Position numbers and translations under genes: made by a program. Shown piece after piece: positions 950 through 50,463 of a stretch of DNA of 64,000 bases. The stretch covers positions 22,568,001 to 22,632,000 of the forward strand of contig CM114271.1 of assembly GCA_050084515.1 (NCBI GenBank), given 5' to 3'. The DNA comes from Blasia pusilla. Taxonomy: Eukaryota. The notes under the pieces are model-generated. The model saw only the letters and a program-made list of their open reading frames with translations, did no database searches and was not told the origin of the DNA. Every line of letters starts with the position of its first letter. Position 1 is the stretch's first letter.

Positions 950-2400
950 GAGAGTATAGAGGAATCTGCTAGTAATCCACCGCACACATTGAGTGGTCCT
1001 ACCAGTTGGGCGTAAGAGATGGACGACCAGGGTAGAGCACCGCGTAGGTTTTCGCGTGCTATAGGCACTATAGAGTTACACGACTTTATTGCAGAGTTTA
1101 GGAGTTGGTGTGACTTATGGCGGACTAGGAACTCCAGAGAGTTCAACCCGTTTACACCATGGAACGGAATATATTAGCATTTAGAGGGGGCACCCATGGA
1201 CGATTACCATGAGTTCTCGCATAGATATGCCCATAAGATTGAGGCTTGTAGACTCTGCTATGACCCACACTATGTGTCATGGACTGAGCCGTTTCCACAT
1301 GAGGAGGAGGAGTCAGGAGAGGGTTCCTCCACCAGTGATGTTGTAGGAGGGATGACTCACACTAGAGCAGTTGCATCATCCAGTCGAGTTCGTCCCAAGT
1401 TCAACCCCGTGGTTGAGTTCTTCATTGAGTTGAGGACGAGCTGCCAAGGGGTACGAACGCAGAAGTTGCGGAGCTTCCATGACTTCTAGAGGCGCCCAGG
1501 TGAGAGTTTGCATGAAGCCTACACACGCTTGCGCCGGTTGATTAACGTCGCTCATGGGGTGACAGAGGCTCATGCTATCTAGTCATGGTACGCGATGCTG
1601 GACCGGACAATGCGGATACGTGTGCGAGAGGGGATGCTTCTTATGAACACCTCCCCTATGTTGAGAGATGTTTTTAGGACTGCCGAGAACATTGAGCGCA
1701 ACGTGGCGGAGGAGACCGTAGCCACCATGGGTTCTGGGCGAAAGCAGTCATAATTGCGTGCACCACCAGTACAACAACGTGGATTTTGAGATAGGTCCGT
1801 GGCACCACGAGCTCAGAGAGGGTACCGGGAGGCCATGCCACAAAGACGTGCGCCTTCATATGTGGCCCAGCAGTAGGCGCCTTCGATAACTTCTTGGTCA
1901 TATGGTGGAGCCCATCATCAGCGTGATTGCACTCGTCAGGGTCATGGTCGCGTGCCTCAGCATGGAGGAGGAGATAGTGCTTCACCAGGAGTTTATCAGT
2001 GTGATTATTGTCAGAGATACGGTCACATATGTGCTAGGTGTTTCAGCTTACATCCTGAGTTACGTTCGGACCGAGGGCCAGAGAGGGCACTTGAGCAAGT
2101 TGTCGGTCTGGATGGGCCTAGAGGTCGTGCACCAAGTGGTCCCGTTGGGGGACGAGGAGTTGGATTTGTCCGAGGGGGTGGTGGAGTTTCCCGTGGAGGA
2201 TGTAGAGTCCCACCACCTAAACGTGTCAAGGGAGATGTCGGGCGTGAGGCTGGAATAGCAGCTAAGATGTAACAGCTACAACAACAAATTGCAGCTATGG
2301 CATTGAGGTTACTCGATGCCGGATCTGTGGCATCGACATCTTATGGATCCGCCAGAGATATGGAGGATCTTGGTTGGATGTGTAGGGTTGCCCATATGGA
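950..2400 (+). pseudogene. gag: E1 gag remnant (zinc knuckles plus an RGG-rich segment)
   Basis: GTIELHDFIAEF and MDDYHEF segments, CDYCQRYGHICARC knuckle and GGRGVG-type tail; multiple stops. Confidence 0.75.
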
Positions 2401-2959
2401 GGCCGCCGTAGTTGTTACGCGTGGAGCCGCAGAGTTGGATCCACAATGAGGGAAAGCTAGGAAATAGACCGGGCTTCCTCAATCCTTCACGTTGTCCGAG
2501 GCGATGAGGACCCCGTCGATGGATTCTGATCAGAGTTCTCAGAGAGTTGGTGATGTTGTTGGTGTGCAGGCACGGAGGGCGATGGGAGAAGCAAGTGCAA
2601 CGAATCCTATTGCTGATGCTCAGGAGGAGCATGTGTCGAGCACGTTGTTGGGGGCGGCCACTGTTGTGTACCGCGCTCCTTTATTTTCTGCTTTTGATGT
2701 GATGACGTTGGGAGGTACGCCCACCAAGGTTTCCTGGCTGGCCGCTATTGGAGTTCCTATATCACGTTGAGAGGTGATTGCAGAGGAGGTGATGGACCTG
2801 CCCTTGGAGCTTATGCTTGGGCCGTCCACGCCAGATTCATGGTAGGTTGCGGCTTCTAGGATGGCGGAGATGCCCGCTAGACCCGCGATAGAGCGTGCCA
2901 TGGCTTCTCTTGGTGTTGTATTTCTGGATAATCGGGAGAGGTCTTCCAGTTGGTGAGTC

Positions 2960-3340
2960 TAGGAGGTAGAGCTTTTAGTCCACACCGCGTCTTGTTGGAT
3001 TCAGGAGCGCAACCCCTGATGTTGGGGAAAGCGACATTCAGAGGTTTGGGCCTGACAAGGGCCGATGTGGAGCGTTGTCCATTCCGGATACAGACATCCT
3101 TGGGTGGAGTGAGTACCACATAATATATCACTTGACATGAGGTTGTGGTGAGGATTTTCTCGGGACATCCTACAGATGAGTACATGGTGCGACCCAAGGC
3201 GATAGTGACTGATGCAGAGTCCTACGCGGTCTTGGTTGGTGGAGGAATATTTTACTTGATGGGGTTTTCCTTGGATTACTGGGAGGAGTCAACGTCCTAC
3301 AAACCAGGATGGCAGTCACGTGATGGGCGCCTTAGCTAAT
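2960..3340 (+). pseudogene. E1 aspartic protease remnant
   Basis: VLLDSGAQPLMLG active-site motif at about 2989 and downstream YAVLVGG motif. Confidence 0.8.
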
Positions 3341-3710
3341 TACCCGTTTGATTCACAAGTGCAGTGATCAAGCGCCGGCAAGGAGAGATGGTGACCTTAG
3401 TAGCATTTAGCAGCGCCATCACTTAGCCTAGTGATTTGATTGAGGGACATATCCATGCAGAGGATATTCCCGTTCCTGATATTTCTATGGAGAGGAGTGT
3501 CATGGTAGTTGCATCAGTCCGTGGAGGAGAGGTGTTGCTTTGGGGCTCGATTGAGGAGCTCCGACGCTTAGCCAATGAGCATGTGGAGGCCGCGTGGAGT
3601 GAGACGTTTGCACCAAACGTGACGGGTCAAAGGAACCCAAGGTAGCCAAGAGTGCTATGATGACTCCATTGGATACCACACCCATTGTGTGGCGCATCCC
3701 AGAGGAGGGT

Positions 3711-4610
3711 ATTCGGGTGTTGGATCTCTTTGGAGGGATCAACACTAGGTTAGCTGTTGTTTTGCAGGCAGGAGTTCGCGTACAGCAGTACCTCTATGTG
3801 GAGATTGATGATGTTGCAAGGTGCGCTTCACTTCACCATGAGGCACAGTTACGCCTTTATTTTCCCGACTTGTTGTTTGCATCCGCTGTCCAGGGATACC
3901 AGAGTTCCCTATCAAGAGATATTTCATTGCTGGGGGCGCAGGACTTAGAGCGGTTAGGGACCATAGACTTAGTCATTGCTGGTTGGCCGTGTCACGGCCA
4001 GTCGGGTGTTGGACGAGGTAGCGGATTAGCTGACTCGCAGTCCATGTTGTTTTGGGAGATCATGCGGATCTAGCGACATTTACAAGAGCATCAGTCTCAT
4101 CCTCCAGCATACATTCTGGAAAATGTGCCGATTTTTGGCGATTTGAGGTCCCGTGCGCGCATGGATCGGCCCGACAGTGTTGTTGGATGCGGTGAGTGTA
4201 GGTGGGCGAGCATATCGCCCGCGTCTTTGATGGACCAACTTGGTGCCACATGAGGTTTTGTAGAGAGTGTATACTAGAGTGGAGCACCCCTCCGATTTGT
4301 TGGTGGATTCTATTTTGGATCGAGGTCGTCGATCACATGCAGTGAGGCACAATGATCGACCGTTGTTCACTGTGGTCAACAAGATTGGTATGCCATGGGC
4401 AGCAGCCTTTCCCACATTTTTGAGTTTTCCCGCTTCCTACGCATTCATGGTTGAGATGACCAGGTACAGAGGTTGGTGGAGCCCAACGCCGATGAGCGAG
4501 AGAGAGCGATGGGATTCCCCACATAAGTGATCGTCACTATCAGAGGCATCACGACATCATATCTTGGGTCAGGCGACGGACCTAAATTGATTGACATGGA
4601 TTTTCAACTT
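3711..4610 (+). pseudogene. E1 DNMT3-like C5 cytosine DNA methyltransferase domain
   Basis: Motif I VLDLFGGI, II YVEID, IV DLVIAGWPCHG, V DSQSMLFWE, VI YILENV, VIII RPRL*WTNL, IX-X ERERAMGF...ILGQA, in linear order, with stops and frameshifts. Confidence 0.9.
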
Positions 4611-5029
4611 CGGAGTAGTTGAGCAACGTCGTTTGCAGATACGATAGATCACAGTTGTTGCATTGGTGAGCCCCATGCCTACGAAGACGGTTGAGGCAGT
4701 GGTTGGGGGCGAGACCCGAGGAGATTGACACACCAGGGATTATCGGGAGAGATATCCTTGGACTTCTTGGGATGTTTTTCAGGTATGCCAGGAGATGGTA
4801 GCCATAGCATCAAGCGTGGTTACGGGTATTACACATGGAGATCCGATTTTGCACTTGGCTACAGGGGAGTAGTCGAGTTCTGTTGTGCAAGACGGGATCA
4901 CACCATAGCAACCACCCACACCCGCGCCTAAGAGTCCTACCGTTGTCACGATGGAGACTTCGGAGCAAGACCTGGGCCCTAAGTTGACAGGAGGAGAATG
5001 GCGCCGGATACACTAGTTCCTTAGGAGTT

Positions 5030-6385
5030 ATAGGAGTTGCTTTGCATTTAGTATACATGACTTGGGTACGATGAAGGGTCCAGGGATCCGCATTGAGTTG
5101 TCGAGCGACCACCAATCTTCGACGACCCTACACGTATAGTGACATGGAAAGGGCTCTGATTCACAGTAGGAGCCAAGACTTGGTTGGAGCAGGACTACTT
5201 GAGATGTCGCATGGAGAGTATGCATCTGCCATTGTCATGCCCGCCAAGAAGGATGTGCATGGCAACTGGATGGATGTGTGGAGATTATCGACCTATCAAT
5301 CGGAAGACTTAGTCCGATAGGTATGCCATGCCCACCCATGGGGAGATCTTTGATGCGATTGAGCATGCAAAGATCTTCAGTTCATTGGATTTGCGAGCCT
5401 GATACCATCAATTGCCTATCAAATTGGAGGACAGGCAAAGACAACATTTTGGGGCATCGATCCTCATGGGAAGGATTTTTTGTACCAGTGGCGGTTCTTA
5501 CCATTCGGTTTAGAGAACGCACCGGTTGAGTTTCAGAGGATCATGGATAGGATCTTGGCAGGTCTAGATTTTGCTAGTTGTTATATTGATGACATGGTAG
5601 ACTTTAGCGCCACGGTTGAGGAGCATGAGTGACATCTAGAGGAGGTATTTTGACGATTGTAGTTATATGGGCTAAAGCTACATCCAGGCAAGTGCAAGTT
5701 CTTCTACGACCAGATTGAATACTTGGATCATACGATATACGTAGGTGGCCTTGGTGTGCAGAAGAAGAAGATAGAGGCTATTTCACGTATCCTTGCAGAT
5801 GTGAGTCGAGTTTGTGCATTCATGGGATTGGCGAACTTCTATCAATACTACGTCAAGGGGTTCAGTTTGATTGCAAAACCGCTTATCTTGCTGACCAAGG
5901 TGGATCAAGAGTGACAATTGGGGGATGAGCAGGAGAGAGCATTTCATCTGCTCAAGGTCAGATTGACGTCCGCGCCCGTATTGAGGAGACCGATCAATGG
6001 GCGTCCTTTCCAATTGCACACCAATTAGAGCATGTTGGGGCTTGAAGCCGTGCTCACCCAACATGAGGATGATGCTAGAGAGTTCGTGGTGGCTTATGCT
6101 AGTCGCTCGAACAACGTTGCAGAGGTGAAGTATAGCTCGTATGAGGATGAGTGCTTGGCTGCAGTATGGGCTCTCGCCCATTTCAGGTGTTATCTATTCG
6201 GCAATCCCTTTACCATCATAATTGATCATCAACCACTTAAGTGGTTGATGGAGTCTGACAAGATTACATGGAAGCTTGCGAGGTGGGCTCTTTTGTTGCA
6301 GGAGTATGACTTCCACGTGGTGCATAGACCAAGGACGCTCAACCAGGATGCAGATGGTTTGAGCTGTAACCCATGCCCGAGTTAG
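5030..6385 (+). pseudogene. pol: E1 reverse transcriptase and RNase H remnant
   Basis: YASAIVMPAKK, LPFGL, YIDD, FMGLANFY, AYASRS, DHQPLKWL and LARWALLLQEYDF motifs. Confidence 0.92.
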
Positions 6386-6734
6386 CGAGATGCAACTGGA
6401 GCTCGTTGGCATGGTGAGAGTGATGAGGAGTTGGTGCCAGGATGGCACGCGTCAGCCTATTTGGGCTTGTTGGCTATGGAAAGCCACATTATTGAGACTT
6501 TGATGGTGAGGTCTGATGGAGAGTCCTTAGATCCAAAGGCCGGTGAGGAGACAACAGGTGGTCGAAACATTCACGACGATGGAGTGGTCTTGGAGTACCT
6601 GCACATTGGGTGCTAGAGAGCGAGATCGGATCCTACAACGAGCCAGACGGTTGCGGTGGGAGGGGACACATGTGTTGCTAGTTTGGGAGGATGGTAGAGT
6701 GCGTGTAGTGCCTCATCCTTTGTAGAGAGTACGT

Positions 6735-7978
6735 TTGGTGCATCATGCCAAGAGGAGTTGGATCATTTTGGAGTCAAGCGGACGTACAGCTTGCTCTAGA
6801 TATAGTATTGGTGGCGAGGCATGCATACTGACGTTCAGCAATTTGTTGCCATGTGCCTGGTGTGTAGTCAAGTTTGAGCATCGTTCAATGCTCCGACTCC
6901 ACAGTTGCATCCAATTCCGATCATGGGTTTAGGTTATAGATGGAGATTAGATTTTGCAGGACCTTTGCCTTTGACGGAGCGCCATAGTCGTTATGTGTTG
7001 GTGATGGTCGAGCACTTCTCGAAGTGGATAGAGTTGGTTGTATTTCCTGACAAAGCGAGTGAGGGAGTAGCGTATGCCTTCCTAGATCGAGTGTTGAGTC
7101 ATTACGGTGCACCAGTTGAGGTGTTGACAGACTAGGGTACATAGTTTCGTGGGGAGTTTCAGGCCTTGTGTGATTAGGCGCTAATCGACCACCGCACCAC
7201 TTCGCGAGATCATCCTAAGGCAAATGGACTAGCGGAGAGGGTTGCGTAGACGGTGAAGAGAGGATTACACAAGTATGGCTTGCAGAGAGGTCACCTAGGA
7301 GATTGGGACCTCCATTTGCCATGGTTAGTGATGGGATACAGATTCAGCAGGCAAGCATCCTTAGTGTCTTTCTCAACGTACTTGTTGCTTTATGGCCGAG
7401 AACCAGATTTACCTACGGCCATTCGTCGAGATGTTGAACCTTGATGACCCTGATGTATGGATGCGAGCATGTTCTCAGAGGGCTGAGTTATTTCCGAGAG
7501 TAATGCCTCATCACTCTCCCATGGCGTTTGAGAACTTGGAAATTGCGTAGCATCGGGATATGTTGAGGTATGCAATGATTTGGGGAGGTGGTTATCGACC
7601 TACTATCCGGAGGTTTCATCAGGGAGACTATGTCTACTTGCAGCAAACGGCATCCACGACGTTGGATATGACTGCAGGGTGCACCATCTTGAGAGTGCAT
7701 GAGATTTTTCCATCCGGTGTTCTCTTATTGGAGGAACGTGATGGTATGGTTTGGAAGGACCATGTGCGTAACTGTGCGCCATGTCATCTTCTGAACATTT
7801 ACGATACATTTGATCCGAGCTTAGCAGTAGTTTTGTATGTATGTTGTGTGGTTCTGCCCGTGGTGCAGCCACTATGCTAGTCTGTGAGGGATGTTCGACA
7901 GGATAGCATATGGCATGTGTGATGCCACCTCTCACTAGGGTTCTTGAGGGAAAATGGATGTGTCCCAGATGAACATAG
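6735..7978 (+). pseudogene. E1 DDE integrase with C-terminal PHD remnant
   Basis: HHCC region, LDFAGPLP, EVLTD*G and GLAER motifs; degenerate PHD ending WMCPR. Confidence 0.88.
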
Positions 7979-8157
7979 AGTAGGTAGTTCTAGATTCCAA
8001 CTTGTGTCTGTGGCATGGATGACAAGAAGGCGACTAACGATGGGGCCACATGAGCACCCGGCCTTTTTGCTCTTAGCGTCCGAGAGATGTCTGTCATGGT
8101 AGATAGGGATAGATGGCTATCTGGAGTTAGAGGGACCTAACCACCAACTAGGGGGCG

Positions 8158-8920
8158 ATTGGAGATATTTTGGTATTTCTTGTCTCGTTGTTTGGATGCC
8201 ATGAGTAAGCATGGGATCGTGCGTGTTTGTGTGTATGTTTGTCGACATGGATGTATGTTGTGTAGCGATGTGAATGTGCACAATAACTGTCAAGTTTTTT
8301 AGGATAGATCGGAGAGATCTGGTAGAGCGACTTTGCGAGTAGAGGAGGACACGCTCAAGAGGTCGAGGATGACCTATTGAGGTCCTAGGAAACCTGAGAG
8401 AGCAGGTTTTCCCTTCGTTTCGGCTCATTTGGAGCCATATAGAGAAACTTACTATTTTGGGTAAATTTCCATATTTGGTAGAGTTGAATTTCCACTTTAG
8501 GAAGTGGCCCTTGACCCACTAGAGCAGGTCAAGAGCCAAGGAGGTGACCTGCGATCATAAGTTACCGAGGAGAGAGCTTGGGAGAGGGAAGGGAATATAC
8601 CTCAAGGAGAGAGAGTTTGAGAGCTCATTTTATCTTTGTTGAACCTCTTGGCATGAGGCGGCGGAGCTATGGTCCCTTGCCTTGTGAGTGTAACCCAAGC
8701 CTCTCATTAAGAGAGTGGGTTTGGTTTGACATTGAGAGAGAGTGCACACATTTGAGAGCTATGGTGTTGAGAGAGATTGGATCTACTTGATTTATTGGAG
8801 ATATTTTGGTACTTCTTGTCTCGTTGTTTAGATGCCATGAGTTAGCATGGGATCGTGCGTGTTGTGTGTATGTTTATCGACAGCGATGTATGTTGTATAG
8901 TGATGTGTATGCACACGACA
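8158..8920 (+). repeat. E1 3' split direct repeat block: B1 (8158-8285), ac, A2 (8288-8793), B2 (8794-8920)
   Basis: B1 and B2 are ~127-bp direct repeats starting attggagatattttgg. A2 starts TGTCA and matches 44141-44435 and 52915-53320. Purine tract tagggggcga precedes B1. Confidence 0.88.
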
Positions 8921-9099
8921 AGACATTACAAGATCCACCTCAAGATATGTCTTGATGTTGTGTATTCATGCTATGAGTGGGAGCAACAAACTTCACCAAA
9001 TTGTTGCTTGTTCCTCAACTTAGTACATTGGCATTGCTCATGTAGGAAAGGAATTACTTTCGCTTTGTTACTTTCTCAACAGTACCAAATCTCCATGTG

Positions 9100-9215
9100 A
9101 AGGAACTAGAGGTTTCTTAGATAACCAAGGAAATATTGCACTCGACAATAATCCTATTTATTATGCGAGAAGTGAGCCTATCAATGTTTGTCACCACTTC
9201 ATCAAAGATCTCATG
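9100..9215 (+). pseudogene. Ty1/Copia RNase H C-terminal remnant
   Basis: Translates to NPIYYARSEPINVCHHFIKDL, resembling the Copia NPVFHARTKHIDVRHHFIRD motif. Confidence 0.55.
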
Positions 9216-30805: not shown

Positions 30806-32374
30806 TTGGAAGAACGGGGTAGTGCGAGCAGTAGTAGTGGTGTGACACGGAGTGGAGTGAGATACCGAGGGGTTACCAATGAGGAGCTACCTCGACATCC
30901 ATCCGTGGCTGGATCGTCATCACTAGACATTGGGTCTGGTGACGAGATCGCTGACAGACACAGTAGTACTTGGCAGGAGATGGACAACATGGGCCATCGG
31001 GGCATGCGTCGTTTCTCAGGTGCAGTGGGCACCATCGACTTAGATGATTTTATCCAGGAGTTCGACACGTGATGCGACTTCCAGGAGATACGGACCCCGA
31101 CACAGTTCAACCCTTTCATGGCATGGAAGGGGTTGTTCCAGCACTTGGAGGGTCCTCCGATGGATGACTATATGGAGTTTTGATCACTATATTCAGTAGA
31201 GATCGATGCCTGTAGGATGTATTGGGCTCCAGGGTATGTGTTCACTAGTGGTCGCAAGGCATATGATGGGATTATGAGAGGAGAGAGACCCACACCATCA
31301 GCCCGAAGACTAGATGGAGAGGAGGGCAGTGAGACAGGCGATGTGGCAGAGACCTTTGGTGGTAGAGGGCCACCCACCTTCAGCCCCACAGTGGAGTTCT
31401 TCCGACAGTTGAGGAAGAGCTACCAGGGCGTACGCACCGACAAGCTGAAGAGTCTATAGGATTTTCAGTGACGATCGGGTGAGAGTCTAAGAGAGGCATT
31501 CACACGCATGAGGAGGCTGATCCTTGCTACGTTTGGAGTGACTGAGGCGCAGTCATTCCGGTATTGGTACGGGGTTCAGGATCAAGAACTACGGAGGAGA
31601 GTGCGAGATGCAGTGCTGATTCACACAGCAACGCCCACATTGAAGGTGGTCTTTGAGTTGTCTGAGCGTATTGAGCTCAACATGAGTGAGGAGCAGGTAG
31701 TGACCGGTGGATTTTCTCAAGAGTCAACGGGTCCACGAGCGATGGTGAGCCCAGAGGTGCCACAGCGAGCACCAGTACCACGGGAGCGGGCCAGTGTGCC
31801 CAGAGAGCAAGGCGGGTACCGTGAGCCTATGAGCCAACGACCCGTACCTACATATGTTGCCCAACAGGGATTGATGTGGTCTTGTTGGACGTGTGGAGGG
31901 GCCCATAGGCAGAGAAACTGCCCACAGCATGGGAGAGGACCACCAACGCTTCCAATTGCTCAGGAGCCACAGAGGATGGTCCCACCACAGCACCAGTGTG
32001 ACTATTGCCACAAATATGGTCACACTAGGGATAGATGTTTTGACCTTGGCCGAAGGGCACGTCCAGAGGTAGGCCGAGGGCCTGGGGGCGGTCGTCCTGG
32101 AGGAGGTCGGGGAGTCCTTCTTGGACGTGGTGGTAGAGGACCACCACCAGCCAGAGGAGATGGAGATGGAGCAGGAGCACCAGAGCCGGCACTTCTCTCA
32201 CGCATCAATCAGTTGGAGCATAGGATTTCTGCCATGATGATGATGCAGCTTAGGGAAGGCAAGCAGCTGCGAGCAGCTAGTGTGACTCGAGCTTCTACCT
32301 CTTACCGTGACCCGAGTGAGGATCTTGCCAATATGGGATTTATGTGTAGTGCAGCCCATGTTGAGGCACTGTAG
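30806..32374 (+). pseudogene. gag: E3 gag remnant
   Basis: FSGAVGTIDLDDFIQEFD; knuckles CWTCGGAHRQRNC and CDYCHKYGHTRDRC; GRGPGGGRPGGGRG tail. Confidence 0.82.
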
Positions 32375-33829
32375 TGGTGACTCGGGGTGCTGCGAGAGGC
32401 ATCGAGCCATCAAGAGGTGGAGTTGAGATTGACCCACAAGAGGGGACCAATGGGCGGCAGGCCAGGGTTCCACAGTCATTCACATTGTCGGAGGCACTAC
32501 ACACACCATTGATGGTGCCTCAATGACTAGCAGTGCCTACAGCTCAGGTACCTACGTGGATGTCACGAGGAGTTGGAGTGACAACTCCTATGCCGGCTCG
32601 AGTGGAGTCAGTGTCAACCATAGTGTTGGAGGTGGCCACCAGAGTGAGTCAGACTCCACTATTTTCCGCCATAGAGTTGGCGACGTTGGGAGTTGGACCA
32701 GCTGAGGTGTTCCGATTGGCCGCCACGTTGTGTGAGCATGGAGAGATGACTGCTTCTTGTTCAGAGGTAGTTGAGGAGGTGGTGGACTTGCCCTCAGAGC
32801 CAGTGCTCGGGACGTTCCTCACCGAGTCATGGCATGCGGCGGCGGCGAAGTTGGTAGATATGCCAGCTCGACCGCACATAGAGTGTTGTGCGCCTACTCT
32901 CCTTGAACGTTAATCTTGTTTGTTGCGGAAGCGTGCGTTCAGTAGGTCACGCTCTCAACGCTGATCTGCATCCAAACACGCACTTCGGTTAGTCGGGTCT
33001 TGGATCAATCAGCGGGATTACTATCCGAGTTCTCGTCTCGGACTCTCTCTTCAAGCTCAACCTTCCTAGTTTCGCGGTTTCCAACACGGGCAAGTCTCGA
33101 AAGACTTGGGACAGACTTTCTGGTCGGTTCAAGAACCTGAAACGGCGTTTCGCGGCTAGCAGTTCCAACTATCCGATGAACATCCAATGAGTTCCTCACC
33201 AAGACTCGCACGAAGTGAATCTCGGGTTGGAATCCAAGTGTGGCGCACAAAGTCCACTCCTTGGATCAGGTTTGGGTTTCGGGTTTCGCGCCAAACTCCC
33301 GTTTCATCCGTGCCTCAAACGCCGTTTGGCGCCCAAAGTGGGGTTTCGTTTCCCGAGACATCTCAAAGAAGGTACTCCCCTTACTAGTACTTCTGGGGAT
33401 CTCCGGGGCCCCTACATTTAGGAAAGACACCGGGCCCTCCATTGGCCCTCAACCCGATTGCTCTCTGAATCGTTTTCGGCCAATATCTCAGCTTGTACTC
33501 ATGCGTTTTCTGAGATCTTTGGTGCGTTGGAAGCGTCTTGAGATCAGCTTTCCAACGCGCCCTTACTTGTCCCGAACGCATCTCGGAGCTCAACGTTATG
33601 GTCCTAAACACAGTCAGATTCTCCCAAACGCTAGCCGTGTTCCAAACTGGTTCTCACCTCTTTGGCAACCAACCTCCAAGACTCAACTCATCTCAAGTCT
33701 CGGCTCGCGTTTGGTCTAGGTTTCCTGGTCGCGACCACTAACGCATGAAACGCACAACTCTGTTCCACGTTTCGTCTCTTAGACTTTTCCAAGAGATTCT
33801 TCCAAACGCCTCTCCAAAGCGCAAACCTC

Positions 33830-34530
33830 GCAGTTGTTTCTGTTATCTGCAGTACGGGGATATTATCATACGCTACTCGCCGACATCTCTTTGGTGGGGG
33901 CGCAGGATCTTGATAGAGTTGGCACCATTCATTTGGTGATTGCTGGATGGCCATGTCACGGTCATTCATCATCTGGCCGAGGATTTGGATTGCAAGATCC
34001 GAGGTCAGGGATGTGACGAGTGTACATCAGGTGAGGTCTTGGTTGGGACCTGTTATGTTGTTAGATGTAACGAGAGTTGGGTCACGTGCCCATCATCCAC
34101 GACTATGGTGGACGAACCTGATACCATCAGAGGTATTGAGTCGAGCATACGGTGGAGTCCAGAGAGCAGCACATCTCACAGTGGATGCTATTTTGGGCTC
34201 AGGGCGTCGATCTTAGGTGGTGACACGCGATGATGGACCACCGTTGGCCATGGCTAATAGGGTGGGGGAGTTGAGGGCAGCCTTACCTATGTTGGTGAGC
34301 TTCCCAGCATCCCTTGCCTTTCGTCAAGGAGGGCTAGGCATGATTTGGGATGAGGTGACCGGAGCATTGGAGGAGCCTACAGCAGATGAGTGCGAATGCG
34401 CCATGGGGTTCGCTACCGGTACTACGGCGGTGCCAAGGATGAGTGAGGCATCCCGGAGATAGGTGTTGGGGCAGGCGATGGACCTCAACTGTCTCACATG
34501 GATAGTCAGCCTAGGTATGGCTGAGTAGAG
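33830..34530 (+). pseudogene. E3 partial DNMT3-like methyltransferase
   Basis: HLVIAGWPCHG...GLQDPRSG, AHHPRLWWTNL, ECECAMGF...SEASRR*VLGQAMD; motifs I and VI are missing. Confidence 0.85.
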
Positions 34531-34879
34531 ACGGATGTGAGAGTCATCCATGATGTCACGTCGACGAGTTGGACCATTGCCTACAGGGTCTGTACAGGCA
34601 TTGGCTGGGGGCGAGACGAGGAGAGATAGGCATCCATGGACTTCCTAGAATGTCATTCGAGCAGAGAGTGCGAAGGCGTCCAGAGTAGCACATGTTCCAT
34701 TTTTTGATGTAGAGCATGGTGTAGGAGGTCAGAGTGGAGTGGTTGTTGCGGAGGTGGCTAGGGTTGCTACATAGCAACCAAAGCCGGAGGTTGCGTCCTC
34801 TCTAAGTGAGGTCACGATGGAGACTTGGGAGCCTGTGATAGGTCTCAAGTTGATAGGTGGAGAGCGACGGCGAGCTCAT

Positions 34880-37837
34880 AGGTTTTTGAGAGGGCATGTC
34901 AGTTGTTTTGCCTTCAGTATGAGAGACTTGGGTACGCTGAAGGGTCCCGGGATACCGATTGAGTTGGCTAGTGATACGCCGATCTTTCGTCGACCCTACA
35001 GGTATTGTGATATGGAGCGAGCCTTGATTTAGAGCAAGAGGCAAGACTTGTTGGAGGTAGGACTTGTGGAGTTATCAAATGGGGAATATGCATCTGCCAG
35101 AGTCATGTCGGCAAAGAAGGATATGTATGGCAATTGGACGGATAGGCGGATGTGTGGAGATTACCGTCTTATCAACCGACAGACGAGGTCAGATCGGTAC
35201 GCCATGCCTACTCCTGAGGAGATCTTTGATGCGGTAGGGCATGCAAAGATCTTCAGTACTTTAGATCTCCGTGCTTGCTATCATCGGCTTCCTATCAGGT
35301 TGGAGGACAGGGAGAAGACAGCATTCTAGGGGATAGATCGGTTCGGGAGAGATTGCTTGTATCAGTGGCGGTTCTTACCATTTGGGTTGAAGAACGTGCC
35401 TGCACAATTTTGGAGAGGGATGGATAGGATTCTGGATGGCTTGGATTGTGTACGATGTTACATAGATGATATTCTTATCTTGAGTTCCACGGTTGAGGAG
35501 CATGAGCGACACTTGGAGGAGGTGTTTTGGCGATTGCAGTTACATGGACTGAAGTTACATCCAAGCAAGTGCAGATTCTTTCAGGAGCAGATTGAGTACT
35601 TGGGACACACCATATATCCGAGTGGGTTAGGCGTTCAGCAGAAGAAGGAAGAGGCGATTGCGCAGATTCCACGCCCTACAGATGTAAGTCGAGTCCGAGC
35701 ATTTCTTGGACTGGCGAACTTCTATCGACGGTATGTCAAGGGTTTTAGTGCGATCGCAAAGTCTTTGACCTTGTTGACGAGACTTGATCAGGTTTGGTTA
35801 TCGGGAGATGATTAGTAGCAAGCATTTCAGGAGCTCAAGGATAGGTTGACGTCCTCACCAATTTTACAGAGACCGGTTAGGGGTCGCCCATTCTAGTTAC
35901 ATACGGATTGGAGCATGTTGGGTGTAGGAGCAGTGCTTACTCGGAGGGATGACGAGGAGAGGGAGTTCGTTGTGGCTTACGCGAGCCGATCGAAGAATAT
36001 TGCAGAGGTGAAGTACATCTCCTACGAGGGAGAGTGCTTGGCTGCAGTGTGGGCCGTGGCACATTTCAGGTGCTATTTATTCGGCAACCCTTTCACACTT
36101 ATCACTGATCATCAACCGTTGAGGTGGTTGATGGAGTCCGACAAGCTTGCAGGAAAGCTTGCCTGGTGGGCTCTATTACTACAGGAGTATGAGTTTGAGG
36201 TGGTTCATAGGCCAGGTCATCTGAACCAGGATGCGGATGGATTGAGTCGTAACCCATATTCAAGTCAGAGAGACAACACAGGAGCTCGATGGCACGGAGA
36301 GAGTGATGAGGAGATGGTGTCCGGTTGGCATGCATCTGCCTATCTTTTTGGTTGACTATGGCAGGTCAGCCACAGGTGATGACTCCAGTGGTGGGGTTGG
36401 ATGATGAGTCTTTGGATTCAGAGGTTAGTGGGGAGGCGACAGGTGGTCGTGATATCCATAACGACGTGGAGGTTGTGGAGTTCTTGTGCACTGGCGTCAT
36501 TGCGAGTACAGTGAGTGCTAGGGAGCGGGATCGCATCCTACAGAGAGCCAAGAGGTTCAGGTGGGAGGGGACTCACATTTTGCAGGTATGGGGAGATGGT
36601 AGGATACGAGTGGTACCTCATCCTTCCCAACGAGCACGTGTAGTGCGACATGCCCATGAGGAGTTGGGACATTTCAGAGTAAAGCGTACTTACAGCTTAC
36701 TCCAAGTTTAGTATTGGTGGCGCGGCATGCATACTGGGATACAACAATTTGTGGCCAGATGTATGGTATGTGACAGAGTGCGAGCATCCTTCAATGCTCC
36801 CACTCCGCAGTTACATCCTTTGTCGATTATGGGTTTAGGTTATCGGTGGAGTTTAGACTTTGCGGGATCTTTGCCATTGACGGGGCGTCATCATAGGTAC
36901 ATGTTGGTCATGCTGGAGCATTTCTTCAAGTGGATAGATTTGGTGGCCCTTCCAGACAAGGCGATCGAGGGAACAGCTTATGCGTTTCTAGATCGTGTGC
37001 TTAGTCACTTTGGTGCACCGGCGGAGGTGTTGACTGACCACGGTACCGAGTTCAGGGGAGAGTTTCAGGCCTTGTGTGATCAGACGCTGATAGATCACCG
37101 CACCACGTCAAGAGATCATCCTGAGGCGGATGGGTTGGCGGAGAGAGTGGTACAGACGGTGAAGAGAGAATTGCGCAAGTATGGCTTGCAGTGGGTACAG
37201 TTTAGGGAGTGGGACCTATAGTTGCCATGGTTGGCTATGGGTTATCGCTTTAGTCGGCAGACATCCTTGGCGTCATTTTCACCGTACTTTTTGCTCTTTG
37301 GGAGAGAGCCAGATTTACCTGCAACGATTCGAGGTGACATAGCGGAGGTGTTAGATCTTGATGATCCAGATGTGTGGGTACAAGCATGTTCTCAGAGGGT
37401 GGAGGTTTTTCATAGAGTTATGCCTATGGCCTTTGAGAACTTTGCTATTGCTCAGCATAGAGATACATTGAGGTACGCGACCATTCGTGGAGGAGTTTAT
37501 TGTCTAGGGATTAGGAGGTTTCATCCTCGAGATTACCTGTATTTACAGCAGGCGGCACCCACGACGCTAGATGTCACTGCAGGGCGCACGATCCTACGTG
37601 TGCACGAGGTATTACCGACCGGAGTCCTCATGTTGGAGGGACGGGATGGTATGGTTTGGAAGGATCATGTGCGCAATTGTGCGCCATGTCATCTTCCGAA
37701 CGTAGATGGGACGGTGGATCCGAGCTTGGCAGCGGTACCTGCAGGCTTGAGGTGTATGTTGTGCGGATCTGCGAGGGATGCAGCCACCATGTTGGTATGT
37801 GATGGTTCTTCTAAAGGGTGGCATATGTCATGTGTGA
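34880..37837 (+). pseudogene. pol: E3 RT, RNase H, integrase and first part of PHD
   Basis: MCGDYR, LPFGLKN, YIDDIL, FLGLANFYRR, AYASRS, TDHQPL, LDFAGS, TDHGTEF, DGLAER, CMLCGS...VCD...GWHMSC. Confidence 0.93.
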
Positions 37838-38591
37838 TTTCGTGCGAATCCACATCGTCATACAACATACATCGCTGACATACCATACTCACATACGTAC
37901 ATAACATAGACGAGAGTATCCACAAACGCAAGTGTACCACAACTGAAATCCGTGAAAGACCTACTGTCATAAAACACGTTTACAATCACATACAATCGAG
38001 CCAAACCCACTCCACGATGGGAGAATCTAGGTCAAAGCTTGCGGGAAACACCATAGACAAGAGCTCTACTCACTACCAAGGCTAACTCCCAACGCAACAG
38101 GCTCAACTCAAAGAATGATTTGTTCTTTGAGTGCACTCCACCTTATATCCTCCAACCTAAGAGCGGGCCCTACTGGGAAACTCACCCCCAACTGAGTAAC
38201 CCCCAACCCTATGTATGGAACCGCATCTCTACCAAGCCACTACGGTCCTACATAAGGAATGTCCTCTACTAGCACACTATACTCTACGACATAATCCGTA
38301 TGGTCATGACAGTTGTCGTGCGAATCCACATCGTCATACAACATACATCGCTGACATACCATACTCACATACGTACATAACATAGACGAGAGTATCCACA
38401 AATGCAAGTGTACCACAACTCGCCCCCCTAACTGGCGGTTAGGTCCCTCTAACTCCCAGGTAGCCCTATACATCTACTACATGCTATACACCTTCTTGGG
38501 TGCCCGAATCAGAAGGCCGGGTGCTAGGTTGCCCCATCGTTAGTCGCACATCTGTAATCCATATCATGCAAAGATCAAGTCATCTACTCTC

Positions 38592-40560
38592 CTAAGTACA
38601 TCGAGGACAAACCCACCTTCCAGTAGGAACGACATCCAAACATGGAGTCAAACACATCATGTGCCAACCCCTAGAACACCGATCACATACCAACATACGG
38701 GCTGCGTTACCAGCAGACCCACACAACATGCACCTCAAGCTAGCAGGTATCATGGCTAAGCTTGGATCAACAGTACCATCCACATTTGGAAGATGACATG
38801 GCGCACAATTACGCACATGGTCCTTCCAAACAACTCCATCACGACCCTCCAACATGAGAACTCCAGAAGCTAACACCTCGTGGACTCGTAAAATAGTGCG
38901 GCCTACCGTCACATCCAACGTTGTCGGGGCAATCTGCTCCAAATAGACATAGTCCCCCACATGGAACCTACGAATCGATGGTCGATAATCTCCACCTCGA
39001 ATGGTTGCATACCGCAACGTATCCCTGTGTTGAGCAATGGCAAGATTCTCAAAGGCTGTTGGCATAACTCTCCGAAAGAGCTCCGCCGCTGAGAACACAT
39101 CCTCATCCACATCTCTCGGGTCATCAAGGTTCACCACCTCACTAGACTCCCAACAATTCTTCTTTGGCAAGTCCGGATCTCGGCCGTATAACGTAAAAAT
39201 AAGGTGAGAAGGAAGCCAAGGATGCTTGGCGATCGAACCTATACCCCATGGCTAACCATGGCAACCGAATATCCGGTCTCCAAGATGCCCCTTCAGAGGC
39301 CATACTTGCGCAATGCCCTCTTCACCGCCCCGAACCACACGCTCAGCCAAACCATCCTCCTCTGGATGATCTCGAGACGTGGTCCGATGATCAATCAACG
39401 CCTTGTCATACAAGACTGAAACTCACCCGAAACTCAGACTGGTCGGTCAAGACTTCAGGTGGTGCACCAAAATAACTAAGCACTCTATCCAGAAACGCAT
39501 ACGCCATTCCCTCACTCGCCTTGTCCGTAATGCCACCAACTCAATCCACTTGGAGAAGTGCTCCACCATCACCAACACATATCGATGATGCAAATGCGAC
39601 CAACGGTAACGGTCCCGCAAAGTCCACACTCCAACGGTAACCCAACCCCATAATAGGCAAGGGGTGTAATTGTGGTATAGGGGCATTAAATGATGCCCTC
39701 ACCCGGTCACAAACCATACAACGTGACACCAAGCTCGCTGCACTGAGTATGCATGCCACGCCACCAATATCGCCAAGGAGTAAGCTATACGTGACGCTTT
39801 ACCCCAAAATGTCCCAACTCCTCATGGGCATGTCGCACAATGCGCTCTCTCGAGCCAAATGTGGCACTACTCGTACTCTACCATCCTCCCACACGCGGAG
39901 AATATGTGTTCCCTCCAATCGATACCTCTTAGCACGTTGAAGAACACGGTCTCGCTCCTTGGCACTCACTATGCCTGGCACCCTCTTTTGGTCCGTAGGA
40001 ACTCCAACACCAACGCATCATCATGAATATCACGCTGATCCGTACCACCATCTCCAACCTTAGGATCTCAAGGTGGCCATCTACCCCCTCGACTAGAGTA
40101 AGATATCACGTGGTCCTCCATACTAGAGTCCACCTAACCAACATAAAAGGCGGATGCATGCCAACCCGGGCACCATCTCCTCATCAACCTCGCCATGCCA
40201 TCTAGCCCCTGTTGTATCCTCTTGGCTAGTACATGGGTTCCTACTCAACCCATGCATCAAGGTTGGCAACTCCAGGTCTATGTACCACCTGGAAGTCATA
40301 CTCCTGTAAGATAAGAGCCCACCGTGCAAGCTTCCCTGTAAGCTTGTCCGACTCCATCAACCACTTGAGCGGTTGGTGATCAGTATCAAGGGTAAACTGG
40401 GTGCCAAACAAGTAACACCTAAAGTGTGCCACAGCCCACACTACTGCCAAGCACTCTCCCTCATATGAACTATAGCGCGACTCCGCTGCATTATTCGAAC
40501 GACTTGCATAGGCCACCACAAACTCCATGTGCTCATCATCATATTGTGTCAACACCGCAG
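38592..40560 (-). pseudogene. E4 RNase H, integrase and intact PHD finger
   Basis: AYASRSNN, TDHQPLKWL, VDFAGPLP; CMLCGSAGNAARMLVCDRCSRGWHMMCLTPCLDVVPTGRWVCPRC (C4HC3). Confidence 0.9.
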
Positions 40561-40561
40561 T

Positions 40562-41598
40562 TCCTACGGTGTGTTGACACAGTTCCTACGTGCTCATAGA
40601 AGTTGTTTTGCCTTTAGCATGAAGGAGTTGGATTCTCTGGTTGGACCCGGTATACGGATTGATTTGGCTAGTGATACGCCAATCTTCCGTCGTCCCTACC
40701 GATATAGTGATATGGAGAGGACTTGATTGAGTAGGACGTTGGACCTTTTGGAGGCTGGATTAGTGGAGTTGTCGCATGGAGAGTATGCATCGCCCATTGT
40801 CATGCTCGCTAAAAAGGATATGCATGGCAACTACACGGATATGCGGATGTGTGGAGATTACCGTCCTATCAATCGGAAAACCAAGGCCGATAGGTATGCC
40901 ATGCCTACACGAGGAGATCTTTGATGTGGTGGGGACAGAAAAGATTTTCAGTACTTTGGATCTTGAGGCGAGATACCATCAATTGCCGATTCGGAGAGTG
41001 ACAAGGCCAAGAAAAGACATTTTGGGGTGTCAACTCTCATGGCAAGGATTGTTTGTACGGTGGAAATTCTTACCCTTTGGGTTGAAGAATGCACTGCCGA
41101 GTTTCAAAGAGTGATGGACAGGATCCTAGCAGGGGTTGGATTTTGTTGGTGTTACATTGATGATATCTTGGTGTTGATAACACGGTGGAGGAGCATCAGA
41201 TACATTTGCAGATGGTGTTTGAGCGGTTGAAAGCTCATGGTCTACGTTTGCATCCAGGAAAGTGTAAGTTCTTCCATGAGGATGTTGAGTACTTGGGTCA
41301 TGTGATCTATCCAGGTGGTTTGGGAGTTCAGCAAGCAAAGGTGGAGGCTATTGCACTTATTCCGCGTCCGGTAGATGTGAGTAGAGTTCGAGCATTCATG
41401 GGATTGGCGAACTACTATCGGAGGTATGTGAAGGGATTTAGTGCTATGGCAAAGCCTTTGAACCAATTGCTGAAATCAGATCAAGAGTGGCACTGGGGAG
41501 ATGATCAGGAGAGAGCTTTTGTGGAGCTTAAGGCCCAGTTGGTGGCGGCGCCTATCTTGAGGAGACCTATCAGAGGGCGCCCATTTCAGTTACACACC
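40562..41598 (+). pseudogene. E4 reverse transcriptase, inverted relative to the rest of E4
   Basis: MCGDYRPIN, LPFGLKNA, YIDDIL and FMGLANYYRR on the plus strand, between minus-strand RH and MTase. Confidence 0.85.
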
Positions 41599-41949
41599 TT
41601 GAGCGTCGTTTCTCACCTCCCGTAAGCTTGGGCCTAAGTAATGGCTCCCAAGTCTCCTCCACTAGCACACTAGAGGGAGAGGACGATGCCATTGGTCGCA
41701 TAACCCCCTCACAAGATGGTACACCCTAGCTACACCATCATCGAGCAAATAACTCCTCCACCAAAGCATGAGCAACCAACTCCACATGCCCGCCATTACA
41801 TCCCATTTACCCAAGGATGCAAAATACTACTGTTCCATCCGCTTTGTTATGCCGTGATGCCTCTACCGCCCGGGAGCCATCGAGCTCATTACAAGGGGTG
41901 GAAGACCCAAAGACATAGTCCGAAGTCGACGCTGCTCGGCCATACCAAG

Positions 41950-42850
41950 ACTCAAAATCCAAGTCAAACAATTCAGGTCCATGGCTGACCCAACACATGA
42001 CGCCGTGAAGCCTCATAAATAGAAGCAACCGATGTCACACCAAAGAGTTAAATCCCATCGCACGCTCTCTCATCGCGTTAGGCTCCACCAAGCGCCGCAC
42101 ATGAGAATCCCATACAAGTACCCGGGACCACCTTCCCCGAGGCATGTGACGCGGAAAACTCACAAATGTGGGTAGTGCCATCCTAGGTGGCCCACACGGT
42201 TCACTTGCCATGCTTGGGTGACCGATCAATAACCCTCACCACTTGAGAAAGTTCGCCAAAGATTCAAGATACTATCCACTGTAAGGCGAGGATCCATCAA
42301 CGCATCATATGCTCCGAGAACCTCCCTAGGCAACAAGTTTGTCCACCACAAGCGTGGGCGATGTGCATTGAGCGTTATTTAGGAACGCATCAACAACCGC
42401 TGGTCCAATCAAGACCGCACCTCAAAAACACCGCCATCATCCGGTCCAGTGTCACCCAACAATGGAACATTCTCGAATGTAAGCTAGAGCACGTGCTCGA
42501 TGAACCGCGGAAGATGTCGTAACACCCGTGAACATCTCCCAAAACAATCGAGACCTAGGGTCATGTAATCCCTCACCACGACCAAATCAGACGTGATGAC
42601 TGGACATGGCCATCCCATCAATCACCAAATGCAGGAAACCCTCTCAAGGTCCTGCGCCCCCAACAATGCAATGTGTGATGGTAAAGCACGCTGGTACCCA
42701 CGAATAGCTGATGGCGGCAACAACTCAGGATATCTCCGCATCAACTGACCAATATGTCGGGATGAGACTCTATGGGCCGTCTCATCTCGCTCCACATACA
42801 CGTATCTCCGCACAGGAATACCGGCCTGCAACACTGCCGCCAAACCAGTG
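41950..42850 (-). pseudogene. E4 DNMT3-like methyltransferase remnant (indel-rich)
   Basis: LAAVLQAGIPVRRYVYVE, GWPCP-like motif IV, DPRSRLFWE, ENV, HRPRLWWTNL, ERAMGF; truncated before motif I. Confidence 0.8.
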
Positions 42851-48529: not shown

Positions 48530-49490
48530 GTATTAGGGTGTTGGATCTCTTTGGAGGGATTAATATTGGGTTAGCTGTTGTTTTGCAGCCAGGAGTACGC
48601 ATACAACAATACCTGTATGTGGAGATTGATGATGTTGTAAGACGCGCTTCACTTTACCATGTGGCGTAGTTACACCTCTGTTTTCCCGACTTTTTGTTTG
48701 CGTCCACTATCCAAGGATACGAAAGTTTCCCATCGGAGATATTTCATTGTAGGGGGCGCATGACTTGGAGTGGGTAGGGACCATAGACTTGGTCAGTGCT
48801 GGTTGGCCGTGTCAGGGCTAGTTGATTGCTGGACGGGGTAGCGGATTAGGTCACTCGCGATCTAAGTTGGTTTGGGAGATGATGCCAATCTTGCGATATT
48901 TACAGGAGAATCAGTCCCATTCTCCAGCATATATTTTGGAGAATGTGCCAATTTTGGGCGATTTGAGATCCTACGTGGTGACGAGTGCACATCAAGTGCG
49001 CGCATAGATTGGTGCGGTAGTGTTGTTGGATATAGTGAGTGTAGGTTCACGAGCACATTTCCCGCGTCTTTGATGGACCAACTTGGTGCCACATGAGGTT
49101 TTGTGGAGGGCGATGCAGAGTGGGCGCCCCTCGATTTTTTTGCTGGATTCTATTCTGGATCCAGGTCGTCAATCAAAGGCAGTGAGGCACGATGATGGAC
49201 CGCCGTTGACTGTGGTCAATAGTATTGGCATGCCACGCGTAGTCTTTCCCACATTTGTGAGTTTTCCTGCTTCCTATTCATTCAAGGAGGCCAGACCTAG
49301 CTTGGTTTGGGATGACCAAGTACAGAGGTTAGTGCAGCCCAACGTTGATGAGCGAGAGTGAGCGATAGGATTCCCCACAAGAGTGACGTCAGTACCTTCA
49401 CTATCAAAGGCATCACGACATCATGTCTTGGGTCAGGCAATGGACCTCAACTGCTTGACATGGATTTTCAGCTTAGGAATAGCTGAGCAG
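48530..49490 (+). pseudogene. E5 DNMT3-like methyltransferase
   Basis: IRVLDLFGGINIGLAVVLQ, YVEID, AGWPCQG, RSKLVWE, YILENVP, PRL*WTNL, VLGQAMDLNCL. Confidence 0.9.
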
Positions 49491-50463
49491 AGTCATTTTA
49501 GGATGCGACGGATCACAGCTATTGCGTTGGTGAGCCCCATGCCTACCGAGACGGTTGAGGCAATGGCTTGGGGCAAGACCTGAGGAGATTAACATACCAG
49601 GGATGATTGGGAGAGACACCCTTGGACTTCTTGGGATGTTATGCAGGTACGCCAAGAGATGGTAGCCACAACATCGAGCGTGGTTCCGGGTACTGCACAT
49701 GGAGATCATATTTTGTCAGCTGGTTGTAGGAGAGCAATCAAAATTTGGTGTTCGAGACAGGTTTGCACTATAGCAACCACCTACAGCCACTCCAGAGAGT
49801 CCTACCCTAGTCACGATGGAGACTTGGGAGCCAGACATGGGCCCTAAGATGACAAGAGGAGAGCAGCGCCTGATACATCAATTCCTGAGGAGTTATAAGA
49901 GTTGTTTTGCATTAAGCATGCAGGATTTGCGTACGTTGAAGGGTCCACGGATCCGCATTGACTTGTCGAGTGACACGCAGATCCTCCAATGACCCTACAG
50001 ATACAGTAACATGGAGAGGGCTCTGATTCAAAGTAGGAGCCAGGACTTGGTTGGAGCGGGACTAGTGGAGATGTGGCATGGAGAGTATGCATATGCCACT
50101 ATCATGCCCACCAAGAAGGATGTGCATGGCAATTGGATGGATAGGCAGATGTGTGGAGATTACCGACCTATCGATCGGCGGATGAAGTATGATAGGTATG
50201 CCATGCCCACCCGTGAGGAGATCTTTGATACGATTGGGCATGCACAGGTCTTTAATTCATTCAATTTGTGAGCCAGATACCATCAACTGCCTATGAGATT
50301 GGAGGACATGCAGAATACTTCATTTTGGAGCATCAATCCTCATGGGAAGGATTGTTTGTATAAGTGGCGGTTCTTACCATTCGGGTTAAAGAATACCCCG
50401 GATGAGTTTCAGAGGGTCATGGATAGGATCTTGGCAGGTCTTGATTTTTCTAGGTGTTATATT

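Follow-up and report, generated by a model that had tools for sequence, protein, structure and literature searches.

Probable DNMT3-like methyltransferase domains in decayed Ty3/gypsy retrotransposons of the liverwort Blasia pusilla

Four retrotransposon copies, referred to below as E1, E3, E4, and E5, were analyzed in a 64,000-nucleotide stretch of the genome of the liverwort Blasia pusilla (the window; contig CM114271.1 of assembly GCA_050084515.1, forward-strand positions 22,568,001 to 22,632,000). We consider them, with a probability of roughly 0.85, to be decayed copies from three related Ty3/gypsy families that carry a DNMT3-like cytosine methyltransferase domain. The coordinates are collected in Table 1. 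The Ty3/gypsy backbone was identified by Pfam (RVT_1, 78.5 bits; RT_RNaseH, 104.3 bits; rve, 42.0 bits). Alignment by tblastn with two proteins of Marchantia established the order gag, protease (PR), DNMT, reverse transcriptase (RT), and RNase H (RH) in E1 and E5; an earlier interpretation of the same DNA by a model, made without database searches (the sequence-only reading), had likewise placed the domain between PR and RT in these two copies. DNA identity is 82% between E1 and E5, while E3 and E4 are ~72–73% identical to E1/E5 and to each other (73% between the RT-to-PHD region of E1 and positions 34811-37838 of E3). The copies therefore belong to three families, and the proposal that the domain has the same placement in three diverged families was upheld.

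Table 1. Regions of the four element copies and of a related gag fragment; positions are those of the window.
Feature	Position	Strand	Basis or remark
E1 gag-like region	1034..2935	+	tblastn vs Marchantia P0159 residues 9-616, 38% identity
E1 aspartic protease region and linker	2884..3615	+	tblastn vs P0159 residues 603-846, 45% identity
E1 DNMT3-like C5 methyltransferase domain and tail	3654..4842	+	tblastn vs P0159, 59% and 42% identity
E1 in-frame TAG CAA CCA, boundary of DNMT tail and RT frame	4906..4914	+	
E1 RT, RNase H, integrase, degenerate PHD region	4972..7923	+	tblastn vs P0172
E1 3' end	8158..8921	+	129-nt direct repeat (8158-8286, 8794-8921) around ~510 nt
E3 gag-like region	30980..32883	+	tblastn vs P0159 residues 1-602; open reading frame 31472-32374
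E3 DNMT domain, N-terminally truncated	33795..34663	+	2 stops, internal deletion of ENV stretch
E3 in-frame TAG CAA CCA; DNMT and RT in one frame	34772..34780	+	
E3 RT, RNase H, integrase, PHD-like end	34793..37878	+	Pfam
E4 RNase H, integrase, PHD finger	38592..40558	-	tblastn, RNase H 89% identity to P0172
E4 RT segment, inverted in place relative to rest of minus-strand E4	40574..41598	+	
E4 DNMT domain	41884..42852	-	8 stops, motif I lost
E5 candidate 5' terminal repeat	44197..44437	+	92% identical to 53081-53323
E5 gag-like and protease regions	46494..48424	+	tblastn
E5 DNMT domain, every motif readable	48526..49646	+	6 stops
E5 in-frame TAG CAA CCA	49771..49779	+	
E5 RT, first part	49825..50463	+	tblastn
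E5 rest of RT, RNase H, integrase, inverted in place	50465..52901	-	reverse alignment to E1 5951-8381, 84%
E5 candidate 3' terminal repeat	53081..53323	+	
gag-only fragment of the same kind of element	59500..61060	-	tblastn vs P0159 residues 1-517

All four copies are pseudogenes, disrupted by stops, frameshifts, deletions, and two internal inversions, and they do nothing today. When mapped on the Marchantia reference protein, the DNMT domain of E1 proved to be interrupted by five in-frame stops and to change frame at least twice. E3 has lost its protease and retains two zinc-knuckle-like CX2C..H..C strings in the gag-like region. A PHD finger following the integrase was detected at 37.5 bits in E4 (cut-off 24) and at 18 bits, below the cut-off, in E3. 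The sequence-only reading had placed the domain immediately upstream of RT in every copy, which is the case in E1, E3, and E5; in E4, where RT is inverted, it is so by position only. The strand of E4, on which that reading was silent, is the minus strand, with the DNMT domain running from 42852 to 41884.

Several structural features of the copies were recorded in addition. The integrase ends in a PHD finger (38592-39251, minus strand, and 37222-37878, plus strand) in place of the chromodomain of chromoviruses. The in-place inversions, which span 40558-41620 (RT) in E4 and 50465-52901 in E5, are either real micro-inversions or assembly errors, and ~360 bp are missing at one breakpoint of the E5 inversion. 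A 370-bp stretch directly after E3 (37944-38313) recurs at 62756-63121 with 95% identity, so that the two form the most similar repeat pair found in the window; the stretch could represent a terminal repeat of the E3 family. On their coding strand, the elements have more G than C: GC skew is about +0.2 at 1-9000, 30000-38000, and 46000-50000 (plus strand), about −0.26 at 38000-40000, where the element is reversed (minus strand), and near zero in stretches free of elements.

The methyltransferase motifs of E1 (3603-4842, plus strand) read LDLFGGI, YVEID, AGWPCHG, ILENV, RPRL*WTNL, ERERAMGF, and ILGQA. The full series is also present in E5, where motif IV contains PCQ; across the two copies the variable motifs can be written AGWPC(H/Q)G, ERE(R/*)A(M/I)GF, and (I/V)LGQA. 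E3, whose domain covers 237 of 317 reference residues, retains AGWPCHG, HRPRLWWTNL, CAMGF, and VLGQAMDLNCL; it has lost motifs I and II together with the stretch around ENV. In E4, FGG is lost, and PC, ENV, HRPRLWWTNL, and RERAMGF are legible. The statement that all four copies carry the C5 methyltransferase motifs is thus correct in full for E1 and E5, and needs to be narrowed for E3 (no motifs I, II, and ENV) and E4 (no motif I). A stop-free piece of E1, 3603-4073, matched the DNA methylase family PF00145 at 27.4 bits (cut-off 22), a check of the kind that the sequence-only reading had proposed for a family consensus; the window fragments 33917-34216 and 49074-49361 alone gave no PF00145 match. 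Seven of the eight bryophyte relatives scanned scored above the cut-off, at 27.7-40.8 bits. In a library of 1.84 billion proteins, the E1 piece had 621 matches at E ≤ 1e-3, and the PF00145-type match is therefore not due to chance.

To assign the domain to a class, a relative from Calypogeia, P0152, was compared with the PDB by phmmer. At E ≤ 0.01, 48 distinct sequences were matched; the best 29 were DNMT3A/B/C (8.4e-11 to 1.2e-7), followed by DRM (3.9e-7 to 2.1e-4), M.HaeIII, M.HhaI, and DNMT2. The alignment with DNMT3A is colinear, with query residues 315-500 and 589-628 falling on chain positions 9-174 and 238-277 (motifs I-VIII, then IX-X), whereas DRM chains align by their C-terminal half only, as expected for a permuted enzyme. 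A fold model of another relative, P0151, was built with AlphaFold2 from 34 aligned sequences (confidence scores: pLDDT 92.0, pTM 0.91). A Foldseek search with this model yielded 182 PDB matches at E ≤ 0.001, of which the best 47 were all DNMT3A/B/C; the top match had an E of 1.9e-17, a target TM (template modeling) score of 0.84, and a root mean square deviation of 3.1. The linear motif order, unlike that of DRM, and the likeness to DNMT3, both noticed from the letters, were thus confirmed. By sequence and modeled fold, the domain is a linear, non-permuted C5 methyltransferase domain, closest to DNMT3 among solved relatives, with a putative catalytic activity. Canonical DNMT3 proteins carry PWWP and ADD as reader domains. 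Because Pfam found neither PWWP nor ADD in the bryophyte proteins, and Gag and protease stand upstream instead, what the retroelement frame contains is a catalytic domain resembling that of DNMT3, and not a canonical DNMT3 protein.

Residues F53, G55, C140, Q141, E183, N184, R223, and R225 were invariant or nearly so in the 34 aligned relatives; the cysteine of PC and the glutamate of ENV, on which the sequence-only reading had made its proposal depend, thus proved conserved. Conservation of this kind bears on the alternative that the domain is a catalytically dead methyltransferase fold that serves the Gag-PR product as a module for binding DNA or chromatin. Such a role is compatible with motif IV being PCH, and not PCQ, in E1 and E3, and with the behavior of the comparable domain from the alga Klebsormidium, which gave no methylation in yeast, a result that its authors call inconclusive (PMC5890265) and that has to be set as well against an active enzyme in our elements. 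A role restricted to binding, however, would need no catalytic residues. In the relatives, little or no variation is seen at the catalytic Cys, at the Glu of ENV, at the arginines of RxR, or in the F-G-G of the S-adenosylmethionine (SAM) loop, and the catalytic residues are all present in an unbroken metagenome copy, L004. We therefore regard a dead enzyme as improbable.

Relatives of the domain were sought in protein collections. A longer-protein search with the E1 fragment gave 30 matches with 39-64% identity, among them 17 from Marchantia polymorpha, two from Calypogeia fissa, and one from Sphagnum troendelagicum; in the annotated proteomes of Marchantia, Calypogeia, and Sphagnum these relatives stand undescribed as such elements. 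Mp_4g09160 (P0159, 1278 residues) is unbroken from its start methionine through zinc knuckles and protease to a complete DNMT, and MARPO_0091s0058 (P0172) extends into RT and RNase H. Of the continuous PR-methyltransferase-RT frame that the sequence-only reading had suggested looking for, the Gag-PR-DNMT part is unbroken in Marchantia; in E1, E3, and E5 a conserved stop stands before RT. The view of the domain as part of a continuous pol has to be revised: DNMT closes the Gag-PR frame, upstream of that stop.

Sorting of 179 matches by architecture with our own domain queries (DNMT was present in 179/179) placed DNMT beside an upstream gag/protease or a downstream RT, as in the window, in 52 cases and between RNase H and integrase in 14; the other 113 were DNMT-only fragments. 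In a midpoint-rooted DNMT tree composed of search matches only, the RNase H-DNMT-integrase arrangement formed a clade of its own, the nearest branch outside the bryophyte clade was P0007/P0009, and the Dam-carrying matches P0041 and P0080 formed a separate branch. A profile search gave at least 233 matches to the group ordered PR-RT-RNase H-DNMT-integrase-PHD, mostly from metagenome contigs; the green algae Monoraphidium neglectum and Haematococcus lacustris have the RNase H-DNMT-integrase arrangement, and a PHD finger almost always follows the integrase. The DNMT part of these algal-type polyproteins is often missed by Pfam, and an ESM Atlas search with the algal-type domain returned generic methylase clusters only. 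P0079 encodes PR, RT, RNase H, and integrase in one frame of 2188 residues. There was no K. nitens protein among the matches with organism names. The gypsy polyproteins with the order PR-RT-RNase H-DNMT-integrase-PHD (Tudor-like in one) include P0300-P0413, P0051, P0302, P0359, and P0387.

The distribution of architectures can be set against the possibility that a host DNMT3 sequence came to lie beside retrotransposon genes by nested insertion, or appears to do so through gene-model chimerism or misassembly. The region is indeed rearranged, with internal inversions in E4 and E5, and the public gene models P0163, P0172, and P0173 splice across element parts. Yet a single order and spacing is seen in four copies from three families, the arrangement recurs in the 52 classified relatives mentioned above and in 80 metagenome loci, and a single frame joins DNMT to the protease before it and, past the conserved stop, to RT. 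A host origin of this sort is, in our judgment, most improbable. The assignment of the window copies to methyltransferase-carrying families does have evidence to contend with: none of the four copies (0/4) is intact; terminal repeats were found for E5 only (a 243-nt direct pair with 92% identity); a direct-repeat search gave no long terminal repeat (LTR) pair for E1 or E3, although the 5' end of E1 may precede the window start; and the DNMT frame was unbroken, with all motifs, in just 1 of 62 near-full-length metagenome loci, L004.

Selection on the domain was assessed at two levels. In ten pairwise comparisons of five proteins from the bryophyte clade, including those of Marchantia, Calypogeia, and Sphagnum, DNMT was 69-77% identical, as compared with 52-65% for the protease, 32-45% for the PR-DNMT linker, and 21-38% for the tail after DNMT. 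Between the window families, the proportion of nonsynonymous differences (pN) in DNMT was 0.33-0.46, against a synonymous proportion (pS) of 0.70-0.76; pN was 0.18-0.29 in RT and 0.15-0.30 in RNase H, with pS similar to that of DNMT. These proportions are given in place of the nonsynonymous to synonymous rate ratio (omega), for which two between-family pairs gave no estimate because pS was saturated. Within the E1/E5 family, omega was 0.59 for DNMT, 0.44 for RT, and 0.59 for RNase H, as expected for selection with neutral post-insertion decay added; all omega values are rough, given the saturation of pS between families and a codon alignment guided by protein similarity, and this lessens their weight in our favor. 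Since DNMT identity exceeds that of the protease and linkers, and pN is below pS, the domain has been under selection and has not evolved neutrally across the families, and the neutral evolution that the sequence-only reading had wished to see checked was rejected.

The boundary between DNMT and RT is marked by the same string, TAG CAA CCA, in E1 (4906), E3 (34772), and E5 (49771). It is in frame with both the DNMT tail and RT, and its flanks are nearly unalignable between E3 and E1/E5. In an alignment of 11 sequences, TAGCAACC was the sole fully conserved octamer near the boundary, the stretch being otherwise variable. Five of the 11 relatives with a DLNCL string (P0152, P0155, P0159, P0161, and P0179) end 89-95 residues past it; three end earlier, and three run into RT/integrase through gene-model joins. 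The boundary was also sought in 80 related loci taken from metagenome contigs, within 125 codons after DLNCL in the DNMT frame, and a stop-CAA-CCN string was found in 34 of them. CAA followed the stop in all 34, the third codon being CCC in 32, CCA in one, and CCT in one.

In tobamoviruses and other viruses of plants, UAG CAR YYA acts as the signal for type I readthrough (Firth and Brierley 2012, PMC3542737). The element boundary resembles it in the in-frame UAG and in CAA with a pyrimidine pair, and would resemble it in the relation of an abundant upstream product to a rarer polymerase fusion. The TAG copies of the window match the complete tobamovirus-type hexamer, CAA CCA. The conserved in-frame TAG CAA CC between DNMT and RT suggests stop-codon readthrough, by which RT, RNase H, integrase (INT), and PHD would be made as an extension of the Gag-PR-DNMT frame; gammaretroviruses use a comparable gag-pol strategy. 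Other observations speak against readthrough. E4 has ATG CGA CCA at the boundary and two stops 6 and 10 codons upstream. Of the 34 metagenome loci, seven have TAA as the stop and the other 27 have TAG, and the hexamer ends in C, not A, in 32; these loci may include one place sampled repeatedly, and several look so. No conserved RNA structure was found 3' of the stop in the 11 sequences (compensatory changes in 1 of 18 pairs, −8.6 kcal/mol).

Abundance and transcription of the elements were estimated from three RNA runs and one genomic run bearing the same species label, aligned to positions 1-14000 of the window at 90% identity. Summed genomic depth was ~0.7 in the region of a single-copy gene. 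On E1 it reached 53-121 over DNMT, 320-680 from RT to integrase, and ~1100-1200 at the 3' end, that is, roughly 80-1800 times the depth of the flanking single-copy gene; from these ratios, the number of related copies would range from about a hundred to over a thousand. Depth is lower over DNMT because this part is more diverged in, or absent from, many copies. Of 34,986 genomic reads on positions 1-14000, 32,105 were only 90-95% identical; they therefore come from other copies, and speak for the family and not for E1. When E1 was compared with the genomic reads, it had A/T against G/C at 484 sites and the reverse at 169. Thus, E1 decayed mainly by C-to-T and G-to-A changes, like methylated DNA. 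At the 3' end of E1, where the direct repeat bounds a 636-nt unit, genomic reads include forms without this unit and forms with it in tandem (joints 8155->8794 and 8784->8158).

RNA reads from the element had the first mate on the minus strand at a ratio of ~10:1, and the opposite orientation was seen for a spliced host gene encoded by the minus strand, which shows that the element is transcribed in the sense direction. Per run, the RNA depth was 14-113 between RT and the 3' end, as compared with 0.3-2.5 over DNMT. The element family is thus transcribed, though the reads do not single out E1 itself. Joints 8095->8596 at the 3' end of E1 occur in RNA reads only.

Retrotransposons with a methyltransferase domain are known from other lineages. 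The closest by published description is KnitGypsy-Dnmt3 of the charophyte alga Klebsormidium nitens; de Mendoza et al. (2018, PMC5890265) place the acquisition of the domain in the lineage of K. nitens. It has, like the Blasia elements, a gypsy-type backbone, a non-rearranged Dnmt3-like domain within the polyprotein, conserved catalytic residues, and purifying selection (there with Ka/Ks, the nonsynonymous to synonymous ratio, below 0.2; PMC5890265), and the domain is likewise intronless. The host here is, in contrast, a liverwort, that is, a land plant, and a moss and a second class of liverworts harbor relatives. SymbioDIRS-Dnmt3 and SymbioLINE-Dnmt of Symbiodinium are likewise retrotransposons with a DNMT domain but differ in backbone (tyrosine recombinase or LINE); the SymbioDIRS domains methylate CG de novo in yeast, so such domains can be active (PMC5890265). 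The green-algal elements described above carry a related methyltransferase (matches to a window fragment at 1e-16 to 1e-11) and a PHD finger on the integrase; they differ in having DNMT between RNase H and integrase and, in the alignment consensus, ECQ and not PCQ as motif IV. The EpiLTRs of Cymbomonas and Euglena are also LTR elements with DNMT and a chromatin reader, but possess a Dam adenine methylase, a chromodomain, and a DNMT sister to DNMT4 (10.64898/2026.05.21.726589).

As far as the accessible literature goes, such elements are new to bryophytes. Bryophytes figure in the available text of PMC5890265 only as hosts of ordinary DNMT3. Two later papers, PMC12344493 (2025) and 10.64898/2026.05.21.726589, say "streptophytes" when citing the 2018 work, and the second treats "streptophytes (Gypsy-DNMT3)" as a distinct acquisition. 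In the portions at hand, the Marchantia methylation papers PMC5784723, 10.1101/363937, and PMC10952607 list no such gene, nor does PMC6453930, in text that does not deal with DNMT genes, and the identifiers of the Marchantia relatives were found in no paper. A literature search that largely excluded subscription journals and supplements gave no report of DNMT-carrying gypsy elements in bryophytes, in line with the sequence-only reading, which knew of none in land plants. Methyltransferase-carrying gypsy elements also occur in land plants, and a conserved stop boundary and a PHD-integrase are added to their description.

Intact relatives are composed of Gag with zinc knuckles, protease, the DNMT3-like domain, a tail of ~90 residues, TAG-CAA-CC, RT, RNase H, integrase, and PHD. 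Active copies would make the methyltransferase as the C-terminal part of an abundant Gag-PR-DNMT product, RT-RH-INT-PHD would arise by occasional readthrough of TAG, and the PHD finger on the integrase may guide integration or read chromatin there. It is possible, though we would not give it even odds, that the enzyme is packaged with Gag beside the new cDNA and methylates the element's own DNA or the landing site. A somewhat less probable alternative, which we rate as rather unlikely, is that the enzyme acts on other targets, such as the host genome in general, the DNA of rival elements or of viruses, or RNA and RNA-DNA hybrids in the particle. DNMT2 methylates tRNA. It is a fold relative of the domain and a weak PDB match (E 9e-3), and antiviral roles have been proposed for transposon methylases (PMC6338049). 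The best matches by sequence and fold are, on the other hand, de novo DNA methyltransferases and not DNMT2, and placement in the Gag-PR frame would put the enzyme in the particle together with cDNA. The most far-reaching account, unlikely to hold in all its parts, is that a PHD-integrase gypsy lineage with an active DNMT3-type enzyme was carried through streptophyte evolution into land plants, or spread among them, that it makes the enzyme at the level of Gag and RT/integrase by TAG readthrough, and that unbroken copies in living bryophytes, Marchantia polymorpha for example, methylate their own cDNA or insertion sites.

Other features of the window are listed here for completeness. A GH17 glucanase that includes an X8 module is encoded by a single-exon stretch at 12427-13797 (minus strand). 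Its best matches are from Marchantia polymorpha (82% identity), Riccia fluitans (76%), and Calypogeia fissa (57%), with vascular plants at ~50%; taken by themselves, they place the window in a Marchantia-like, complex-thalloid liverwort that is probably not M. polymorpha. The GH17/X8 gene, 11209-13797 (minus strand), is expressed, and RNA reads define two introns, 11845-12150 and 12175-12445, each bounded by GT..AG when read along the minus strand. At positions 9808-10274, RNA depth is high in both orientations, and loose read ends cluster at 9831 and 9884; the stretch resembles a dispersed expressed repeat. Three adjoining long open frames of 133, 381, and 157 residues at 18556-20577 (minus strand) may belong to another mobile element; a transposase at 18958-20103 (minus strand) was considered and rejected, there being no Pfam support at E 0.01. 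A tandem array with a unit of ~180 bp and copies 61-81% alike occupies 57585-59240 and adjoins the truncated gag fragment. A search of the whole window against Rfam gave no matches.

Methylation is the host's main weapon against retrotransposons, and retrotransposons with a cytosine methyltransferase of their own therefore present a paradox. Through the PHD finger, the element couples a DNA methyltransferase with a histone-reader module. Its arrangement also matters for dosage, as the methyltransferase would be made with Gag and not with the polymerase, and at the TAG CAA CC boundary the idea that a plant retrotransposon uses readthrough can be put to the test. Land plants are said to lack transposon-encoded DNA methylases, with tracheophytes as the example (PMC6338049); the liverwort and moss elements contradict this statement. 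Bryophyte entries annotated as "DNA (cytosine-5-)-methyltransferase", such as Mp_8g17980 and the Sphagnum entry, are transposon genes. The question moves from an alga that is hard to manipulate, the sole published case among streptophytes, to Marchantia polymorpha, a genetic model with methylome resources. If the most far-reaching account is true, "DNMT3" gene counts in bryophyte proteomes would be inflated, and a transposon-encoded route of de novo methylation would exist in a genetically tractable land plant.

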